Shown: positions 522 through 60,005 of the stretch, piece after piece
Layout: each line of letters begins with the position of its first letter
Numbering within the stretch: position 1 is the stretch's first letter
Virus record (IMG/VR): IMGVR_UViG_2562617057_000010
Location: 1 to 64,000 of that record
Origin: a virus
Lineage: Duplodnaviria; Heunggongvirae; Uroviricota; Caudoviricetes
Reading direction: 5' to 3' (one strand)
DNA: 64,000 nt
Program-made: the position numbers and the translations under genes
The notes under the pieces: generated by a model
Seen by the model: only the letters and a program-made list of their open reading frames with translations
Databases searched by the model: none
What the model was told of the DNA's origin: nothing

Positions 522-834
522 GTATTTGTATTTTGTGCAATGGCGGTAGAGTGGCGATGGTGTGGCGATATGCAGAAACAATGGTAGTGCACGTGCTGTT
601 TAAACTCTAAGGATGAAGCAGAATTCTTCTGCAGCTCCTCCGTATTTCGCATAGTGAACCAGGACCTCTGTTAAACAAAAATTTTTTTGGGATTTTTCCA
701 CTCGACTTCATTTTTCCTCCTGCAATCCACCAACAGGTACCTGCGCTAATCTATCTTTTTTAATCTGACAACATCTTGGGAAAAGGCAAATTTGAACCGC
801 CCCGGGTTTCCTGGAGAGTGTTTTATCTGTGAAC

Positions 835-1725
835 TCAGGCTGCCAGATCATCGTTTCCGATGGAAGCATAATAAGCTTTTTCTGCTTCTGCCGGAGGAGT
901 ATGGCCCAGCCTTTCCAGCAATCGTCGATTGTTATACCAGTCCACCCACGTGAGTGTGGCCAGTTCCACTTCTGCACGGTTTTTCCAGCTCTTACGGTGT
1001 ATTACCTCCGCTTTGTAAAGACCATTGATGCTCTCCGCCATCGCGTTGTCATACGAGTCGCCTGTACTTCCTGTTGATGCCAGTAATCCGGCTTCCTTAA
1101 GCCGCTGTGTGTAGGCCAGCGATACATACTGAGAACCTTTATCACTGTGATGGACCGTGCCGGACGGTCGACGGGCCCATAACGCCTGCTCCAGTGCATC
1201 CAGCACGAATGTCGTTTCCATGGACGATGAGACCCGCCACCCCACGATGTATCCGGCAAACACATCAATGATGAACGCCACATAGACGAAGCCCTGCCAT
1301 GTGCTGACGTAAGTAAAATCAGCCACCCACAGCTGGTCAGGTCGTTCTGCCACGAACTGACGGTTTACGCGGTCGCCTGCGGCAACGGCTTTCCGGCTGA
1401 TGGTCGTACGGACCTTTTTACCCCGGAGAACACCGGCAAGTCCCATAACCGCCATGAGACGTGCCACAGTGCATCTGGCCACTCTGATGCCTTCCCGTAA
1501 CAACTGACGCCAGACTTTACGCACACCGTATACCTTGTGATTTTCATCGTATACGCGCTGTATCTCTTTCTTCAGCCAGTCATCGCGCTGCGCACGGGCA
1601 CTGCGTTTATCCGGATGATGTCGCTGTTGCTGACAGTGGTAATACGTTGACGGGGCAATATGCAGTTCGCTGCATAGCGGTCCGACCCCGTACTGCTCAC
1701 GCAGCTTATCCAGCAGTGGCATCAT
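835..1725 (-). CDS. IS3-family transposase OrfB (DDE integrase core)
   Basis: 296-aa ORF with rve-type DDE motifs ([22 protein letters not shown]); overlaps orfA by 4 bp. Confidence 0.9.
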
Positions 1726-2048
1726 TTTTTCCAGAGGCGGTCGAACTCCGCCTTCGCAAAATAAGCGGAAGCCTGGCGAAGGATATCGTTACTGCGGCGC
1801 AGTTCACGATTTTCACGCTCCAGCTCTTTCAGACGCTGACGTTCAGCGGTGGTGAGCCCTCCATCACCGCCCCCGGTATCCCGCTCATGCTGGCGAACCC
1901 AGACACGCAGAGTCTCCGGCGTACAGCCAATCTTTGGAGCAATGGAACAAATTGTCGCCCATTGTGAGTCATATTCGCCCTGACTTTCCAGAACCATACG
2001 GACTGCCCGTTGACGGACTTCGGGGGAAAAACGAGTATTTTTAGTCAT
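1722..2048 (-). CDS. IS3-family transposase OrfA (HTH, leucine zipper)
   Basis: 108-aa ORF, N-terminal HTH and C-terminal coiled coil ([13 protein letters not shown]); A-run at overlap with orfB consistent with -1 frameshift site. Confidence 0.9.
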
Positions 2049-2307
2049 CCTGTTTACCTCTTTCTCAGGAAGTTTAGTCTCCAGGATTCCCGGGGCGGTT
2101 CAAATTCGTCAGATTTACTGTTTTTCTGCTGCCTCGAATGCCGATGTCTGAAGCACTGATAAGAGTTCTATCTCTTTGATATAGATCTTTTTTTTGATGA
2201 ATTGCACGACATATTATCGTTATGACACCTTCTTGTTAAAGGTATTGTACTCCTCATCTCGATTTTATGATGTGGGCTATGATTGGTTAGTAATAGAGTG
2301 TATCGGT

Positions 2308-2589
2308 ATGCGATGTGGTTTATTAATGGCAATCTGCCTTTGTTTAGTATCTTTTAGTGGATATGCAGCAACAGGAAAGTCTGATGCTCAGATCAAAAAA
2401 GAAATAATTAAAGAATCCATTGAATCTTATCCAGGCAATTGTGCGTGTCCTTATAATCATGCAAGGAATGGTAGTAGATGTGGTGGACGCAGTGCATATA
2501 GCCGTAATGGAGGGTATGACGTGGTATGTTATGAGGGTGATGTTACCGATGAAATGATCCGGCAATGGAAGCAGGAGAATGCTGAGTAA
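2308..2589 (+). CDS. Small secreted cysteine-rich protein, unknown function
   Basis: Internal ATG of 131-aa ORF gives 93 aa with signal peptide MRCGLLMAICLCLVSFSGYAA and 5 Cys in mature part; own terminator downstream. Confidence 0.45.
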   Translation: MRCGLLMAICLCLVSFSGYAATGKSDAQIKKEIIKESIESYPGNCACPYNHARNGSRCGGRSAYSRNGGYDVVCYEGDVTDEMIRQWKQENAE

Positions 2590-2664
2590 TCTCTTTTAAC
2601 AGGTTTGTTGTGCGAGCATTATGTGCCGTTAACGGTACACTAGCTAGTGATAGTTCCAAAAAGA

Positions 2665-2698
2665 AAACCCGCAGTTCTTACGCTGCGGGTTTGTTGTT
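2665..2698 (+). terminator. Rho-independent terminator
   Basis: Stem CCCGCAG/CTGCGGG followed by TTTGTTGTT. Confidence 0.6.
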
Positions 2699-2777
2699 CA
2701 CGTCTGTGAGATAGGGTGCCACTTCAGCCAACCTTAGCAACCGATTGACGGGGGATTGCTCCCCCGTCGCGGTTTCC

Positions 2778-2918
2778 TTACTGTTTACACTGTAAGAACG
2801 CCGCAAACTCCGCTCCCCAGAAGCTCATCCGTATTTCACACAGCGAACCGTGCAGCATCCAGATGATGAGGATTGCCGTCACGCAGAACGTGATGGCCGT
2901 AAGCGATTTTTGCGACAT
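2778..2918 (-). CDS. Hok/Gef-family type I toxin (46 aa)
   Basis: Hand-translated minus-strand ORF MSQKSLTAITFCVTAILIIWMLHGSLCEIRMSFWGAEFAAFLQCKQ; TM helix plus SLCEIR and AAFLxCK motifs as in Hok/HokA; AAGGAG SD 9 nt upstream; below the 60-aa ORF-track cutoff. Confidence 0.6.
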   Translation of the reverse strand: MSQKSLTAITFCVTAILIIWMLHGSLCEIRMSFWGAEFAAFLQCKQ

Positions 2919-3862
2919 AGCGCTTGCTCCTTTGTTGGAGAGGCGCTAACCTATCACTTGCTTAAGGTAGATATGTTAGGGCCTCGGTTAAACAGAAATG
3001 TTTTCCGGGGCCTTTCCACATCCGGCCTTCGGGTATTCCCTCCGACCATCAGCCGAAAGGCACCCGCGATTATTCTACTGATTTCCCGCTTCTCTGCTAC
3101 GTAAAGTTTCACGTCACCCGTTCGGTTCTCCGCGAAAGTTAAAATTTTGCCGCTTTTGTCGCTGCTTTCGTGAGCGGTTTTTGCTTGCGCCTGAAAATAG
3201 TTACACAGTGAAACTGTGTAACGCTGCGCCAAAACGATCCTTGTCCAATGTTTTGTTTTTACCTTTTATTTCATTGCGTTAAGTGGTTCCTGTGCGTGGC
3301 ACTTTGGCGGCATTCAGATCCTTTAAAATGACGAAAGCAAAAAATAGTTTTGTTTTTCATATGGTTAATTTTTCTGTCAGATCCTTTTTTAACGTTAATC
3401 TGGCAAAGCCTGGCAATCTTTGACACTTTGTGCCAGATGGCTTTTTTGTAAAGCGCCAGTGCTGGCGCGATCTGGAGTGTCGTTTTGCGCAAATTTATTT
3501 GGCAAAAAATTTTTATCGTAAAGAGTGCAAGCGCGGGGGGCTTGCGCCCGTGCCGTGTGTTGGGCTCATCATGCCGTGAAATATCCACGTAGCGTGCGTG
3601 TACGCTTTCAGGCGTTACGAGCTGAATTCAGGGTGACTCGCGCGTTTATTTGCTTAAAGCATGTCGCAGAATGCGATACAGCGCGTCTGGTGGGGGGTGT
3701 TTTTCTGGGGGAATGCCCGTCGCGACGGGCTTTCGTCTGGTTCGATGAATGAAATTTATTGATATATGAATAATTTCACGAAATGCTTATTTGTCTGTAT
3801 TTTGTGGCATGATTCTTGAGTGGTAAACCGGGCTGCCTGTGCACCTCTTCTCATCTGTAAAC

Positions 3863-5551
3863 TTACTGCTTAATCACGGTACTGTACTTCGCTTTCAGGT
3901 TGCCTGCCATTGATGCCACCGTGTCTATGCTGCCGCTGTTGGTGGGCTGTGACGACCCGTTGTTGGTATGAGTGTGTTGTGCGGTGAGCTGCGCCAGTTG
4001 CTGAACGGTGTCGCAAAGATCCAGCATGAGGTTAAGTGTGTTGATGGTATTGCTGCCAAACCAGACCTGCGGGGCGATGATCTGTTGCATCTGGCCAGCG
4101 ACGGATTTTTTAATCCGGCCAATCTTTTCTTCCAGCGTTTTCGCCACATTGTGGGTGGTGCTTTCTGTGCTGGTTTGCCACTGGTGAGTAACGTCGAGTT
4201 TAGCGCTGTCGGCGTGCTGTATCAGTTTCTTCGTGGCGGCTACGGCATAGTCACCGTCTGCGATGTGCTGTATGTGGCCGCTCATCAGCTTATGAGTGCC
4301 GAGCACCGTTATGGTGTTGTTGGCCTTTACGGTAATATTACGAGTGGTACTGGTGCGCGTTTCCGTTGTGTTCTGGATGATGCGGTCGGTGGATTTCTCA
4401 CGAATAACCTGATCGGTTTCACGCTGCCATGTGCCATCTGTATGCACACGCTGGAATACCTCTGCGCGTTGCTGTTGTAGTTGTTCGCCGGGCTTTATTC
4501 CCGGCAGACTCTGGCCGCTGGCGTGAGTGCCGGTGATGATGGGTTTATCCGGCCTGCCGTCAACGTGGGCCAGTGTAACTATGGTTCCTGGGGGCGGGTA
4601 CTGGAATATCCCGGATTCATTGCCGGCCATTGGCACAGGAACGGGGACGGCGTTATATACCGGTGTGTTCTTATCGGGGGTGCCGTTCTCGTCGAGCAAC
4701 TGCACATTGACGGCGTAGCGTGGGCGAAATTCATCATGCAAATCCCCCTGGGTTGTGTTTTCAGTTGGTGAGATCACGCGTCCCATGCGTGGAAGGTGGG
4801 TTTTGTTGCCTATCTCGGGGTAAAGGGTTTCGATCTGGCGTTGTACTGGCGACTGACGGCCATCACTCCAGCTAATGATCATGCTGTCGCCCTGTAGCTG
4901 TACCTGATTTATACGGTGATCGTTCATGACCACGCCGGGGCGCATCATGGGAATCGTCTGTATTGTCCAGCCATTTGCTCCGTGATCACCTCTGGTGATA
5001 TCGACCGGCAATCTGGCAGGGCGTTTTGCAAAACGGCAGTCAGCAAAGCTTCCGGCGTAGATGATGCCGTCAACCGACGGATACCAGACGTAATCCGGGA
5101 TACTGAATATGCGGCCAAGCATGGCCATCAGCTGATAACCGTTGCCATTGTGGGTTAGATGAGGGACCGGAGTGGTGGTGTAGCCTGCCTTCGGGAGTTG
5201 TATGCGTAAACCTGTATTGCCTTCAATGTGTCCTGCGACCTGTTTCAGCGTCGGATGCTGCATGGAGATGTTGAGCGGGTATTGCAGAATAGCAGCAGCT
5301 TCGCGCACCATCAGCTTGTGCAGCCCTCTGCCTGTACAACTGTCACTTTCCACATATCCCGAAAACCACTTTACAGGCTGATCGTTGTAACCGATGGACA
5401 GCTCTACGGGTTTGCCGCGTAGCGGGGGAGTATTGTCGGCGGCGTTAATGGTGATAAAGCCGGTTCCCGCGCCGTTGAGACGCAACATGATGTTTTCTTC
5501 CACGACAGGATAACGCCTGCCGTTAATGCAGAGATCACGAATTGGTTTCAT
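3863..5551 (-). CDS. Putative baseplate hub / central spike fusion (gpD-like N-term, gpV/VgrG-like C-term)
   Basis: 562 aa; N-terminal segment resembles the Mu-like gp44 hub in this window (GKPVELSIGY...GYVESDS vs [10 protein letters not shown]...GYIDS); C-terminal repetitive beta-rich region; last gene of the tail operon. Confidence 0.4.
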   Translation of the reverse strand: MKPIRDLCINGRRYPVVEENIMLRLNGAGTGFITINAADNTPPLRGKPVELSIGYNDQPVKWFSGYVESDSCTGRGLHKLMVREAAAILQYPLNISMQHPTLKQVAGHIEGNTGLRIQLPKAGYTTTPVPHLTHNGNGYQLMAMLGRIFSIPDYVWYPSVDGIIYAGSFADCRFAKRPARLPVDITRGDHGANGWTIQTIPMMRPGVVMNDHRINQVQLQGDSMIISWSDGRQSPVQRQIETLYPEIGNKTHLPRMGRVISPTENTTQGDLHDEFRPRYAVNVQLLDENGTPDKNTPVYNAVPVPVPMAGNESGIFQYPPPGTIVTLAHVDGRPDKPIITGTHASGQSLPGIKPGEQLQQQRAEVFQRVHTDGTWQRETDQVIREKSTDRIIQNTTETRTSTTRNITVKANNTITVLGTHKLMSGHIQHIADGDYAVAATKKLIQHADSAKLDVTHQWQTSTESTTHNVAKTLEEKIGRIKKSVAGQMQQIIAPQVWFGSNTINTLNLMLDLCDTVQQLAQLTAQHTHTNNGSSQPTNSGSIDTVASMAGNLKAKYSTVIKQ

Positions 5552-43640: not shown

Positions 43641-45713
43641 GTGACCGGGAAACGCTTAAAAGCGTCTGTCATTATTGATCTTAATGGCAATCTTTCCCGG
43701 CGTTCCCGCCAGTATTCGAACCAGATAAACGCCCTGTCCCGCAGCGGGCAGAGTTCCCTGCGTGCCCTGCGTATGGAGGTTGTGCGCGTTTCTGGTGCCA
43801 TTGACAGAATGGGTTCTCTGTCAACCCGTACATTCCGAATGCTGTCAGCCGGGGCGCTGGGTATCGCTGGCGTGGGTTACACCGCCAATAAACTGTTTAT
43901 TGGTGCAGCCGCCCAGCGTGAGCAGCAGATTATCGCCATGAACTCGCTCTATCACGGCGATAAGGCCAGAGCACAGGCCATGATGGCGTGGGCGAAGCAG
44001 AACGCAAAAGAAACCACCTGGGGGCTGGGTGGTGTTCTGCAGGAGATCCGCACATCAACTGCGTTTGGCATGACTGATGCCCAGGTAAAACAGTTCATCA
44101 CCATGCTACAGAACCAGGGCGCGATGCATGGCTGGGATTTACCCACTGCACAGGGGGCTTCGTTACAGTTCAAACAGATGTTTGCCCGTCAGCAAATCAC
44201 GGCGGCGGATGCCAACCTGCTGACCGGTTACGGTATCAACGTTTACAAGGTGCTGGCAGATGCAACGGGTGAGGATGAGAAAAAAATCCGTAAGCTGGGT
44301 GAAAAAGGCAAACTGGGCCTGAAATCCATCCTGACGGTGTTCAGAATCTTACTGGAACAGTCAAAAGGCGCACAGGCGGCGGCCATGAACTCCTGGGACG
44401 GGATGATGGCCCAGATGGAGGGCAATCTGCTTGAGTTTCGTACAAAGGTGGCAAACAGCGGCCCCTTTGAAGAAATCAAGAACGAGATGCGCCGGGTACT
44501 TAACTGGCACGACATGGCGGATAAATCCGGGGAACTTGACGCACTGGCAGAAAACATTGGTCAGAAATTTCTGACCACGTTCAGAACGGTAAAAATCGCG
44601 GCGCAGGAATTATGGCGCTGGCTGAAACCGGGTAAAGATGCGCTGGCATGGGTTGACCAGAATATTGCCAGCCTGAAAAAACTGGCTGCTGTTCTGGTGT
44701 CTGTCTGGCTTGCCAATAAAGCCCTGAGAGCAGGCTGGGCCGTGGCAAAACCTTCGTGGCAGGTTGCCAGTTACCCGTTTAAAACCGGGCGTCGTATGTG
44801 GCGCTGGATGCGGAACCGCAAACGTGGGCGGGCAGGTCTGCCGGTGCCGGATGCCATGACGTCTGAGACGCTGTTGCAGGGCACCGGCATTCAGCGTGTG
44901 TTTGTCATCAACTGGCCCCGTGGATTTGGTGGCTACGGGAGTGGCGGCGGTCGTCGCGGACGGAGCGGCGGAAGAATGGCCCCGCTGTTACCCCGCCAGC
45001 CGTTATTGCTGTCCGGGCCACAGCCGCTGGCATTACCTGCACCACGCCCTGTACTGGCATTACCCCCACCCGGCGTACCGGTAACGGCACGGCCTGCACC
45101 ATTACCTTTACCCGGTAAATCCGGTCTTCTGAGCAGGCTTGCAGGCAGTGCTGCCGGGCAACTGGTTACGGGAACGGTCGGAAAGCTGGCTGATGCCGGG
45201 CGTGCTGTTGGCGGGTGGTTTTCCGGTATCGGAAACAAACTTGCAGGCAGTGCGATCGGTCGGGTTGTGACAAAAGGTGCCGGGGCGCTGGGCTGGATGG
45301 GGAAAGGTGCCGGTCGTGCGTTGTCATGTCTGGGTGGCCCGGTAATGGGGGCACTCCAGCTTGCCCCCGTCCTGATGGATGAGCAGGCGTCAACCCATGA
45401 AAAAGCAGGCGCAATTGGCAGTACAGCCGGTGCATGGCTCGGCGGTGCCGTTGGCAGCCTTGCCGGACCGCTGGGTACGGTTGCCGGTGCCACGCTGGGC
45501 AGTGTCGCCGGGGAGTATCTGGGCGGTTTTGTAACCGACCTGTATCAGAAATGGACGGCCCCGGATAAGGAACCGCAGGAACAAAAAGTGAATGCGGAAG
45601 CCTCGCTGCGCGTCGAACTTGGCGAGGGGTTACGCCTGACCAGTTCCCGTGTCACCGAGGATGGTATGGGGCTGAATATTTACGCGGGCGATAACTACAT
45701 TACGGGCTGGTAA
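43641..45713 (+). CDS. Tail tape measure protein
   Basis: about 690 aa from GTG 43641 (AGGAG SD); Gly/Pro-rich repetitive segment. Confidence 0.8.
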
Positions 45714-45717
45714 AACC

Positions 45718-47205
45718 ATGTTTGAAGATGCTTTAAATGCCGTTAATGCTGTCCGGGATAAAACCGGTGGAGGCAGGAAAACAACCGGCAAAGGCACGTT
45801 CCGTAACGTGCCGTTTCTCGTCATCGAGGAGCAAAAACAGGCTGGCGGACGTCGCCTGGTTAAACGCGAGTACCCGTTACGTGATACCGGCGGCGTCAAT
45901 GACCTGGGGAAAAAGCTTCGCTCCCGTACATTCAGCGCCTGCATTCTGAACAGTAACGCAGAAACAGCCAGAGATGAAGCGGATGCGCTGATGGATGCTC
46001 TTGATGCTCCGGGCAGCGGTGAGCTGGTACATCCTGATTTCGGCACTGTGGACGTCATGGTGGATTCATGGGAATGCCGCACTAAAGCGGATGAACTGAA
46101 TTATTACGCGTTCACCGTTACCGTTTATCCGTCGTTGCAGGATACTGCCCCGGACGCAGAAACAGACACCAGTGCAGCCGTACCGGCACAGGCTGTTGCT
46201 GTAACCGGTTCTCTGGGGGATACGCTGTCCTCTGTCTGGCAGACCGTAAAAGATGGCACTGCGGCGGCAACCGCCGTGATGGAAGCTGTAACCGGTGTCA
46301 TCGATGATATCAGTGATGCGGTGGACAATCTGGGGGTTACGCAGACTGTCAGCGGTCTGATGGGATCGCTTTCTGCGATGAAAGGCTCTGTGACCAGCCT
46401 GATTAACCAGCCTGCCATGCTGGCCTCCTCGCTGATGGGGGCGCTGTCCGGCGTTTCATCGTTATGCGATACCCGGACAGCATTTTCCACATGGAACCGT
46501 CTGGCGCAGCGATTCGAACGTCGCCATGCCGCCACCGCAGGCAGACAGGGGGCAATCACAACCTCGTACAACAGTCCGGTTGCAGAAAAAAATATTGCCA
46601 CACTGAACTACGTCATGCTGGCAGCGGCGCAGACATACCGGGCAGAAGCTGCCAGCCAGGCACTGACTGCGGCACTGGATTTCAGTCGCCGGATGGATAA
46701 TGCCGCCCGTACACCTGTACTGGATGCCCCGTCCACCACAACCGGCACAGCCAGCGGGGCCAGCAGCACATCTGCTACCGTCACACAGGGACAGTTACAG
46801 TTAACTACCATAACCCCGAACGGCGGCTTTTCACAGGTATCCTTTTCAGACAGTGGTACAGCCACGCCCCCGGTATTTGAAAGTGTGTCCGATATCGGAA
46901 AAACAGCCGCCATGCTGGGGGCTGCACTGGATACCGTCATTCTGACGGCATCTGAGCAGGGCTTTTCGACAGACAGCGTTCAGCTTACGCAACTGCGTCT
47001 GCTGGTTGTTGCCGATCTGGAAAAACGCGGGCTGCAACTGGCGGGCAGTGAAACGCACCGCCTGCCGGAGACGATGCCTGCAATGGTGGCCCTGTACCGT
47101 TACACAGGAAACAGCCGGAACTGGCAACGGCTGGCCCGCAGGAACGGTATCAGCAACCCGTTGTTTGTTCCCGGTGGCGTCAGTATTGAGGTGATTAATG
47201 AGTAA
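45718..47205 (+). CDS. N: DNA circularisation protein (Mu N-like)
   Basis: 495 aa after tape measure. Confidence 0.75.
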
Positions 47206-58181: not shown

Positions 58182-60005
58182 ATGAAATATACCGAAGAAG
58201 TCAGGGACGCTGCCCGCGCCCTGTATCTGAAATTCAGTACACCAAAAGAGATAGCGGCCACGCTGGGGCTTCCTGTGCGTACCGTTTATAACTGGGCTGT
58301 CCGGGGGCAATGGAATGAAATGTTACCAGCCGAGTCGGTGGAAGTGGCTGTCGCTCGGCGAGTGGAACGACTGACCTGCAAGGATGGTAAAAGCGAGCTT
58401 GAGCTTGAAGAGCTGCGCTTCCTGATATCCCAGCACGTCAGGCTGATGGCGCAGAAGAACAAACATGCTGAACGGATGGAAGAGATCCGGGCGATGGTCA
58501 ATACCGGCGTGGTGGTCAATGATGGCCGACAGGGTAGCAGTGAAGAAGGGAATGACGAAGGTGGTAAAAAAAGGAAGCGACTACGTAAAAATGATGTCGG
58601 CGGACTGACAAAAGAAATATTTGATGAAAAAGCGAATGGTCATCTGTTTGAATATCAGCAATATGTGCGTGAGCACGGCGACGAACTGTTCCGCTTCATT
58701 CTGAAAGGGCGACAGGAAGGATTTACCTACTATTTTGCATGGGAAGGGTTTGAAAAGGCCGTTCTCACGGGCAAGAATCAGATATTCTTTTCCGCCAGTA
58801 AACCCCAGGCGGAAGTTTTCCGTTTCTATATTCTCAGTATTGCGCAGCAATTCTTTGGTGTCGAGCTTAAAGGCAACCCGATTCGCCTCAGCAATGGTGC
58901 GATACTGCGTTTTCTGGCGACCAATCCCAATACGGCGCAGTCCTACAGTGGCGACCTGTACGGGGATGAGGTCTTCTGGATATCGAAATTTGCCCGCCTG
59001 CATGAAGTGGCGTCAGCGATGGCGACGCATGACGAATTCCGTATTACCTATTTTTCAACCCCCAGCACTAAAACGCACCAGGCTTACAGGCTGTGGACAG
59101 GGGATGAATGGAAGGGCGACGATCCGAAACGTAAGGCGGCGGAGTTCCCGACCAGCAAGGAATTGCGTAAAGGTGGACAGGTCTGCCCTGACGGGATCTG
59201 GCGCTATGTCATCACAATGGAGGATGCGTGCGCTAAGGGACTCAGTGCCAGAGTTAACATTGAGAAGCTGCGTAACCGCTACAGCGCCACGGCGTTTGCC
59301 ATGCTGTACATGTGTGAGTTCACTGACTCCCGCGACACAGTATTTAAATTCTCAGACCTTGAAAAATGTGAGGTTGAGTTCGGCATCTGGCAGGACTTCG
59401 ACCCCTCCGCATTACGGCCTTTTGGTAATCGTGAGGTGTGGGGTGGTTTTGATCCGTCACGAACGGGTGATAACTCAACATTTGTTATTGTGGCCCCGCC
59501 TGTTGAGCCTAAAGAAAAATTTCGCGTGCTGGCTGTCTACCAGTGGGTGGGGCTTAACTTCACCTGGCAGGTTAAGCAGATTGAAGAATTAATGAAACGC
59601 TACCGGTTTACGCATATCGGGGTGGATATCACGGGTATTGGCCGGGGTGTTTATGATCAACTGGTACGCTCCGCACCGCGTGAGGTGATGGGGATTAACT
59701 ACAGTGTTGATAATAAAAATAAACTGGTGCTTAAGATGATTGACCTCATTGAGCGGCGACGTATCCAGTGGGTGAAAGATGCGGTTGATGAGGTGACAAA
59801 AGAACGTGCCGATATCCCGCTGGCATTTATGGCCATCCGCCGTGTAATGACTGCCAGTCAGAACGCAATGACGTTCGCCGCCGAACGCAGCGAAACGACC
59901 GGTCACGCGGACGTATTTTTTGCCATATCGCACGCGGTCTGTAATGAACCGCTCGACTATGAATATGACCGCCCCTCGGTGTGGGCATTCGGGAAGGCTG
60001 CATGA
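58182..60005 (+). CDS. P: Terminase ATPase (large) subunit, P2 gpP-like
   Basis: about 607 aa from ATG 58182; divergent from O. Confidence 0.75.
   Translation: MKYTEEVRDAARALYLKFSTPKEIAATLGLPVRTVYNWAVRGQWNEMLPAESVEVAVARRVERLTCKDGKSELELEELRFLISQHVRLMAQKNKHAERMEEIRAMVNTGVVVNDGRQGSSEEGNDEGGKKRKRLRKNDVGGLTKEIFDEKANGHLFEYQQYVREHGDELFRFILKGRQEGFTYYFAWEGFEKAVLTGKNQIFFSASKPQAEVFRFYILSIAQQFFGVELKGNPIRLSNGAILRFLATNPNTAQSYSGDLYGDEVFWISKFARLHEVASAMATHDEFRITYFSTPSTKTHQAYRLWTGDEWKGDDPKRKAAEFPTSKELRKGGQVCPDGIWRYVITMEDACAKGLSARVNIEKLRNRYSATAFAMLYMCEFTDSRDTVFKFSDLEKCEVEFGIWQDFDPSALRPFGNREVWGGFDPSRTGDNSTFVIVAPPVEPKEKFRVLAVYQWVGLNFTWQVKQIEELMKRYRFTHIGVDITGIGRGVYDQLVRSAPREVMGINYSVDNKNKLVLKMIDLIERRRIQWVKDAVDEVTKERADIPLAFMAIRRVMTASQNAMTFAAERSETTGHADVFFAISHAVCNEPLDYEYDRPSVWAFGKAA

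Follow-up and report, generated by a model that had tools for sequence, protein, structure and literature searches.

A predicted hok/Sok-type toxin–antitoxin cassette of phage origin, with no mok frame overlapping hok, in an Escherichia coli-like chromosome

The 64,000 nucleotides analysed here (positions 1 to 64,000 of the IMG/VR virus record IMGVR_UViG_2562617057_000010, henceforth the window) probably carry, between positions 3077 and 2658 of the minus strand, a complete type I toxin–antitoxin cassette of the hok/Sok type, of phage origin and with a mechanism similar to that of plasmid R1. Judged by its sequence, the toxin gene is a genuine member of the Hok family. This gene is already known: it is annotated in RefSeq and frequent in E. 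coli as well as in phages of this species, and the peptide that it encodes has been catalogued. What is added here is a map of the regulatory RNA elements of the cassette, which the published catalogue, by its own text, left aside. A second point is that about two-thirds of the alleles of the clade are devoid of the mok overlap that is considered essential in R1, yet keep their toxin under purifying selection. If borne out, this would mean that translation of hok can be gated without mok. The features discussed below are collected in Table 1.

The initial annotation had singled out a minus-strand frame of 46 codons and assigned its product to the Hok/Gef family. The frame is indeed present, with the motifs SLCEIR and AAFLQCK and a single hydrophobic stretch spanning residues ~6–22, and the AAGGAG Shine–Dalgarno sequence, which had been described as strong, does precede its ATG (Table 1). 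The Pfam comparison that had been proposed as a check agrees with the assignment. Profile PF01848 (HOK_GEF) is matched with 29.9 bits for a cut-off of 22 (E-value 4.1e-7), residues 7–44 of the peptide being aligned on profile positions 5–42 of 42. Likewise, the profile of PHROG 251, ‘MokW-like host killing’, is matched by residues 1–46 on its positions 2–49 of 50 (80.6 bits, E-value 1.3e-22). When the peptide is aligned with Hok(R1), HokA-E, PndA and SrnB, residues C12, T14, L26, C27 and E28 occupy columns that vary little or not at all, and E37, just before AAF, is aligned with the glutamate of the ‘EVAAF’ segment present in most classical Hok proteins. As given in a recent preprint, the positions of the Hok logo are M1, C16, T18, L30, C31, E32 and E41 (bioRxiv 10.1101/2025.08.07.668861). 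Furthermore, the frame is intact, with 46–47 residues, in all 71 unique related loci that we collected from IMG/VR, GTDB genomes and annotated records, a sample gathered by an exact 23-nt DNA pattern inside hok and hence biased towards copies that keep this pattern; crude NG86 dN/dS values against the window range from 0.13 to 0.28. Assignment to a subfamily is another matter. The HokA equivalog model of NCBIfam (NF007290) gives 34 bits for a cut-off of 89, so that this identity was rejected, and the Hok subfamily model (NF007279) is not reached either, with 21.6 for a cut-off of 73. As both scores are far below their cut-offs, the gene is a hok but not hokA.

That the gene was unannotated, as had been stated, is true only of the list of open reading frames, limited to 60 residues, from which the initial annotation was made. 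The RefSeq entry WP_000078916.1, a ‘Hok/Gef family protein’, is identical to the translation of the window frame, letter for letter, and phage records label its relatives ‘MokW-like host killing’. The 701-bp region used as a query (2600–3300) is found at 99.3% identity in 6 complete E. coli genomes, and a related locus exists in 1,539–1,622 of 5,426 such genomes. Phage P88 (Xuanwuvirus, Peduoviridae) carries a relative with 97.6% identity, further P2-type phages have one too, and Stx2 phages carry a paralogue that is 82% identical. The peptide itself appears in Table S2 of Escalera-Maurer et al. (bioRxiv 10.1101/2025.08.07.668861) as 72_1621, a member of cluster 72 (a ‘high-abundance cluster’) listed with plasmid LRP137; the sequence listed there is identical to that of the window. 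According to this preprint of 2025–26, 42 of 45 homologues were toxic upon induction with arabinose, and three non-toxic exceptions are named, 19_179, 60_1482 and 69_1540. Since 72_1621 was among the peptides tested and is absent from these three named constructs, the identical peptide would be toxic when induced, as deduced from the preprint's text. In prophages, according to the same source, hok genes show an enrichment of about four-fold; the authors also state that mok, Sok and the structure of the mRNA were deliberately left unanalysed.

Exploration of the relatives brought two further observations. The reference phage 933W (NC_000924) has a second intact hok gene of 46 codons, MSQKSLITVTICMTVIFTIWMLHGSLCEFRLNLWGAEFAAFLQCKQ, at ~45,660–45,800, between lom and ST933Wp67. 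This gene is distinct from hokW, located at 58.4 kb, and its product is identical to peptide 72_1589 of the preprint. As a point of annotation, the 933W record misses it altogether, and many records of Stx2a phages likewise have ‘none’ annotated under the hok match. Besides, the exact 23-nt hok pattern is present in GTDB assemblies labelled Xanthomonas pisi, a Planococcaceae MAG and Vagococcus sp. (L126, L128, L130). L128 and L130 display hok cassettes that are nearly those of E. coli, and L126 is a mere 857-bp contig; rather than pointing to true hosts, this suggests that the assemblies are contaminated with enterobacterial or phage DNA.

The window is E. coli-like chromosome, with three tRNA genes on the plus strand at 152–451 that correspond to tRNA-Gly, tRNA-Cys and tRNA-Leu beside pgsA-uvrC-uvrY in the matching RefSeq locus. 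The locus of E. coli CFSAN029787 lacks the IS3-family insertion that follows the last of them, but is otherwise nearly identical. It had been proposed that hok lies at a prophage/IS boundary, and this is loosely right; the insertion sequence, however, stands ~560 nt past the hok terminator, with a small open reading frame in between, and the hok unit is untouched. Disruption of the unit by this element is thus ruled out, its span being outside the unit. The intervening frame, coding for a cysteine-rich protein of 93 residues, matches PHROG 27544 (unknown function; E-value 7e-58). It stands outside the region of homology with P88, with the hok terminator on one side and the tRNA-Leu gene on the other. 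On the other side of hok, a gap of 786 nt (3078–3862) is void of annotated genes in the RefSeq counterpart, which is nearly identical, and beyond it come a baseplate gene of the HP1/P2 type (3863–5551, minus strand) and then tail-fibre genes, also on the minus strand. The window does not have the ogr-like gene that precedes the hok of O157 and that of phage Chuche. Two longer minus-strand frames upstream of hok were discarded: one of 105 codons (3271–3588) has no Pfam match and no support, and one of 92 codons (2954–3232) merely crosses the leader in another frame.

The limits of the cassette can be read from its homologues. Homology with P88 is restricted to positions 3077–2658 of the window, a span that begins with the -10 box and finishes where the terminator does. 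In the diverse phage contexts considered (P88, Chuche, and Stx phages, where the unit comes after lom), homology stops at the hok promoter on one side and at the terminator on the other, except that the 3' limit in Stx phages is just past the fold-back element. Because homology with P88 is confined in this way, the unit behaves as a discrete cassette of ~420 bp found in varied phage contexts, and it appears to travel as one module.

Table 1. Features of the hok region and of its surroundings in the window (positions in the window).
Feature	Positions	Strand	Remarks
hok -10 box (predicted), TAGAAT	3072–3077	-	TAGATT in relatives, whose homology ends exactly here
hok mRNA leader	2908–3065	-	Begins at predicted 5' end G3065, ends shortly after the hok ATG
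5'-terminal element (tac-like), GGGUGCCUUUCGGCU	3051–3065	-	Partner 2729–2714 in the full-length RNA, 3017–3007 in the isolated leader
Short leader ORF, MWKGPGKHFCLTEALTYLP then stop	2962–3021	-	In the frame of R1 mok; TAA 2964–2962, 43 nt before the hok ATG
ucb-like box, GGAAAGGCCCC	3007–3017	-	Other partner of the 5' end, in the consensus fold of the leaders
Leader hairpin, GAGGCCCUAAC...GGUUAGCGCCUC	2940–2985	-	At the position of the Sok-target hairpin of R1-type loci
hok Shine–Dalgarno sequence, AAGGAG	2927–2932	-	8 nt from the ATG; partner in helix 9 is CUCUCC 2942–2937
hok coding sequence, MSQKSLTAITFCVTAILIIWMLHGSLCEIRMSFWGAEFAAFLQCKQ	2778–2918	-	46 aa; ATG at 2918, TAA 2780–2778
Post-stop hairpin, GACGGGGGAGCAAUCCCCCGUC	2747–2768	-	99.8% of cells paired (helix 16)
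3' fold-back element (fbi-like), GGCUGAAGUGGCACCC	2714–2729	-	Pairs with 3065–3051 in MFE and centroid folds
Intrinsic terminator	2658–2692	-	Stem then U-run; P88 homology stops here
Sok-like promoter (predicted), TTGCTC-17-TAACCT	2924–2952	+	-35 at 2924–2929, -10 at 2947–2952
Sok-like RNA (predicted), ~60 nt	2959–3017	+	Single-stranded 5' tail, hairpin 2979–3012, UUUCC; ends approximate
Cysteine-rich 93-aa ORF	2308–2589	+	Apparent N-terminal hydrophobic segment; RefSeq hypothetical protein WP_001303543.1
IS3-family insertion, ~1.3 kb	~793–2100		Between the tRNA-Leu gene and ORF 2308–2589
IS transposase ORFs	1722–2048 and 835–1725	-	
ALIL frameshift pseudoknot of the IS3-family element	1651–1767	-	

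The transcript that would be made from this cassette has the architecture of a hok messenger. The Rfam model RF01794 (‘sok’) is matched over all its 157 positions at 3065–2908, with a score of 44.8 bits (E 1e-8) that is under the gathering score of 59. To know what strand this model describes, it was calibrated on the hokW/mokW/sokW locus of phage 933W, which it matches with 113.5 bits in the hok sense, from the 5' end of the mRNA to past the hok ATG. As a consequence, the match in the window would define the leader of hok, with G3065 as its predicted 5' end. The predicted full-length RNA (3065–2657, 409 nt) folds with -182 kcal/mol, z = -8.3 as compared with shuffled sequences. Its structure was then mapped onto an alignment of 70 relatives: 92.2% of cells are paired, versus ~40% with slid partners, a paired fraction that is inflated by the use of a fold derived from the window. 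In the same alignment, the two fold-back helices (helices 1 and 2) reach 98.6% and 89.2%, with one-sided switches between G-C and G-U on the 3' side, and helix 9, which holds the Shine–Dalgarno sequence, reaches 93.9%. Compensatory changes are found in the post-stop hairpin (2768–2747) and in inner helices; in this hairpin, one pair goes from G-C to A-U in 25 sequences, and the next one displays double changes in 20.

The leader was also considered in isolation. In the RNAalifold consensus of 47 distinct leaders, the 5' end of the mRNA pairs with 3017–3007, in a stem kept in 46–47 of the 47, and every pair of the hairpin 2985–2940 is standard in all of them. The layout of this fold is that of the Rfam consensus structure. 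The 5' end of the messenger thus has two partners, and the pairings of 3065–3051 with 2729–2714 and of the end at 3065 with 3017–3007 would correspond to the tac/fbi and tac/ucb alternatives described in R1 (PMC9841398). Since both helices are nearly invariant, their support comes from conservation, not from covariation.

It had been considered that a Sok-like antisense RNA could not be placed with confidence. This can be amended, as the leader delineated by RF01794, together with a promoter and a hairpin that are conserved, allows one to propose a predicted location. A generic promoter scan of both strands of 2600–3300 found no sigma-70-like site on either, and the promoters of hok and of the antisense RNA were therefore placed by conservation and by position with respect to annotated loci. 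The pattern TTGnnn-17/18-TAACCT and the hairpin that follows are kept in 70 of the 71 loci, where TAACCT is invariant. The corresponding RNA would match leader nucleotides ~49–107, to be compared with nucleotides 51–121 of the leader for the annotated sokW of 933W. Its predicted fold has an energy of -25.2 kcal/mol, and compensatory changes are found in helices 6 and 7 of the sense strand. To be sure, the hexamers of the promoter are weak, each with 3/6 matches to the consensus, and the U-tract is short. Synthesis of a Sok-like antisense RNA from the promoter at 2924–2952 is put forward as a prediction.

The predicted promoter of hok stands apart in this copy. In relatives belonging to both phage types it reads TTGCC[G/C]-17-TAGATT. 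In the window, the family -35 box TTGCC[G/C] is replaced by GTAGCA at 3100–3095, and the promoter is a poor match to the sigma-70 consensus. The 835 bp upstream of hok (3066–3900) are found in 6 of the 5,426 complete E. coli genomes, and the junction at 3077 is rare. Transcription of hok may be altered in this copy; the antisense promoter is untouched.

In R1, translation of hok depends on mok: the mok start codon is at nucleotides 116–118 and that of hok at 174–176, hok being in the +1 frame relative to mok, and mutations of the mok start codon, or premature stops upstream of hok, abolish toxicity (PMC9841398). The initial annotation had found no overlapping mok-like frame in the window, and this is correct for the present allele, where no frame of the three crosses the start of hok. 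In the frame of R1 mok, the only ORF with an ATG start is the short leader ORF of Table 1, and this ATG (3021) is nearly invariant among the relatives examined. Another solution would have been an in-frame N-terminal extension of Hok, such as mokW in 933W, which shares the stop codon of hokW. It was rejected: this frame is shut by a TAG ten codons upstream, which is part of an invariant AGGTTAG. The situation is not particular to the window. An ORF that starts with ATG, at leader nucleotide ~17 or ~45, reads into hok in 22 of the 71 loci, and 4 more have only GTG or TTG as a start for such an ORF. This leaves 45 loci without mok-frame overlap, with P88, the O157 allele and most Stx-phage alleles as cases in point. 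Open and closed mok alleles are interleaved at 87–98.6% identity, and it is in the hairpin loop that they differ, by small indels and by stop codons. It had been suggested that regulation of hok was altered or decayed. As most alleles of this Hok clade are without mok, its absence is not a decay of this copy; the copy did, however, lose the -35 box, and together with the R1 rule on mok this makes decayed regulation a possible, though unlikely, reading for it.

Is the toxin made at all in such alleles? Among pairs of the 45 mok-less alleles the median dN/dS is 0.20. With Hok under purifying selection in these alleles, the peptide would still be selected and hence made, and synthesis without an overlapping mok is the simplest reading, as we infer it from these comparisons. 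Translation of hok in the cluster-72 clade is thus probably independent of a canonical overlapping mok. It is more tentatively, with somewhat less than even confidence, that we see cluster 72 as a natural variant of hok/Sok without overlapping mok, in which Hok, the fold-back RNA and the antisense promoter are constrained. Were this true, hok would be translated directly, or via the short non-overlapping leader ORF or a standby-type mechanism. Sok would then target the leader hairpin, not the ribosome-binding site of mok, in contradiction with the R1 rule that makes translation of mok up to the hok Shine–Dalgarno sequence obligatory.

These features can be assembled into a scenario. A stable mRNA of ~409 nt would start near G3065 and end at the terminator (2692–2658). 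As suggested by folding and by conservation, its 5' end (3065–3051) and the element 2729–2714 would close the molecule, with the Shine–Dalgarno sequence of hok kept paired. Trimming of the 3' end would free the fold-back partner, and the 5' end could then pair again, with 3017–3007 according to the computed fold. A short, unstable antisense RNA (~2959–3017, plus strand) would bind the region of the leader hairpin, and this binding would either block expression or trigger cleavage by RNase III. Finally, when synthesis of the antisense RNA stops, because the element is lost or the prophage is induced, the 46-residue peptide would be made and the inner membrane damaged.

Several other explanations must be weighed against a working R1-like cassette. 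That the frame is open by chance, its resemblance to Hok being fortuitous, has practically no likelihood. It is short, with 46 codons, and the HokA and Hok subfamily models of NCBIfam are far under their cut-offs; but the Pfam score is above its own, PHROG 251 is matched with an E-value of the order of 1e-22, the frame is intact in 71 loci under purifying selection, and the architecture of the flanking mRNA is typical of hok. A more serious view is that this copy, and perhaps most mok-less alleles, never makes Hok and is a silent remnant of intact appearance, a regulatory dead end. The rule established in R1, where mutated mok starts or premature stops suppress toxicity (PMC9841398), would, if applied to this allele, make it silent: 43 nt separate the end of the mok-frame ORF from the hok ATG, which no frame crosses. 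Changes upstream go in the same direction, with homology broken at 3077, GTAGCA in place of the -35 box, and a junction shared by no more than 6 of the 5,426 complete E. coli genomes. However, a silent gene would not be expected to stay intact in 71 of 71 loci, nor to have the low median dN/dS (0.20) of the mok-less alleles, and these alleles include deposited genomes of P88 and of Stx2a-converting phages. Moreover, the -10 box is nearer to consensus here (TAGAAT versus TAGATT), and the Sok-like promoter and all the RNA helices are the same as in the relatives. On balance, we consider silence of this kind unlikely.

The cassette could also be active while serving the phage, in lysis and release upon induction or in superinfection exclusion, rather than in post-segregational stabilisation. 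In line with this idea, it is carried as a moron by Peduoviridae and by Stx phages, two groups of temperate phages that are unrelated to each other, PHROG 251 is classified under ‘moron, auxiliary metabolic gene and host takeover’, and the prophage enrichment reported in the preprint (bioRxiv 10.1101/2025.08.07.668861) fits as well. There is even a functional precedent, as hokW-sokW of phage Sp5 raises phage release about two-fold after mitomycin C (PMC8621323). Yet hokW is a different Hok locus (51 residues, at 58.4 kb in 933W), and the cassette sits at the edge of the prophage in the window. We regard a role of this sort as possible but somewhat unlikely, and keep the R1-like hok/Sok cassette as the probable interpretation.

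How does this cassette compare with known systems? At the protein level nothing separates it from peptide 72_1621 (cluster 72) of Escalera-Maurer et al. and from WP_000078916.1. The cassette of P88 has 97.6% DNA identity over 3077–2658, its peptide differs by A15V, and it is also without a mok-frame ORF. The contexts diverge: the unit follows tail gene D in P88 and an ogr-like regulator in Chuche, both with a TTGCCG -35 box, whereas in the window it comes 786 nt after the HP1/P2-type baseplate gene and has another sequence in place of the -35 box. The hokW-sokW system of 933W and Sp5 is similar in being a phage-borne hok/Sok locus with a leader that matches RF01794. Orthology with hokW was nevertheless rejected: this gene codes for 51 residues and is located at 58,460–58,615 of 933W, where mokW and sokW are annotated too. 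It is the second, 46-codon hok of this phage that is truly related to the window gene. Among classical Hok proteins, HokA of E. coli K-12 is the closest, with 38–41% identity and shared MxQK...WM..SLCE...AAFL.C motifs, and it provides the best NCBIfam model for the window peptide, yet below cut-off and with a different genomic site. Comparison with hok/sok of plasmid R1 reveals a balance of differences and likenesses. The peptides are only 28% identical (46 residues in the window, 52 in R1), the leader has ~150 nt instead of ~173, and there is no mok overlapping hok, whereas R1 needs translation of mok to the hok Shine–Dalgarno sequence (PMC9841398). In both systems, however, a Hok with a single transmembrane segment and conserved C, T, LCE and E residues goes with a similar leader layout, a 5'–3' fold-back, an alternative pairing of the 5' end and, as predicted for the window, an antisense promoter inside the leader.
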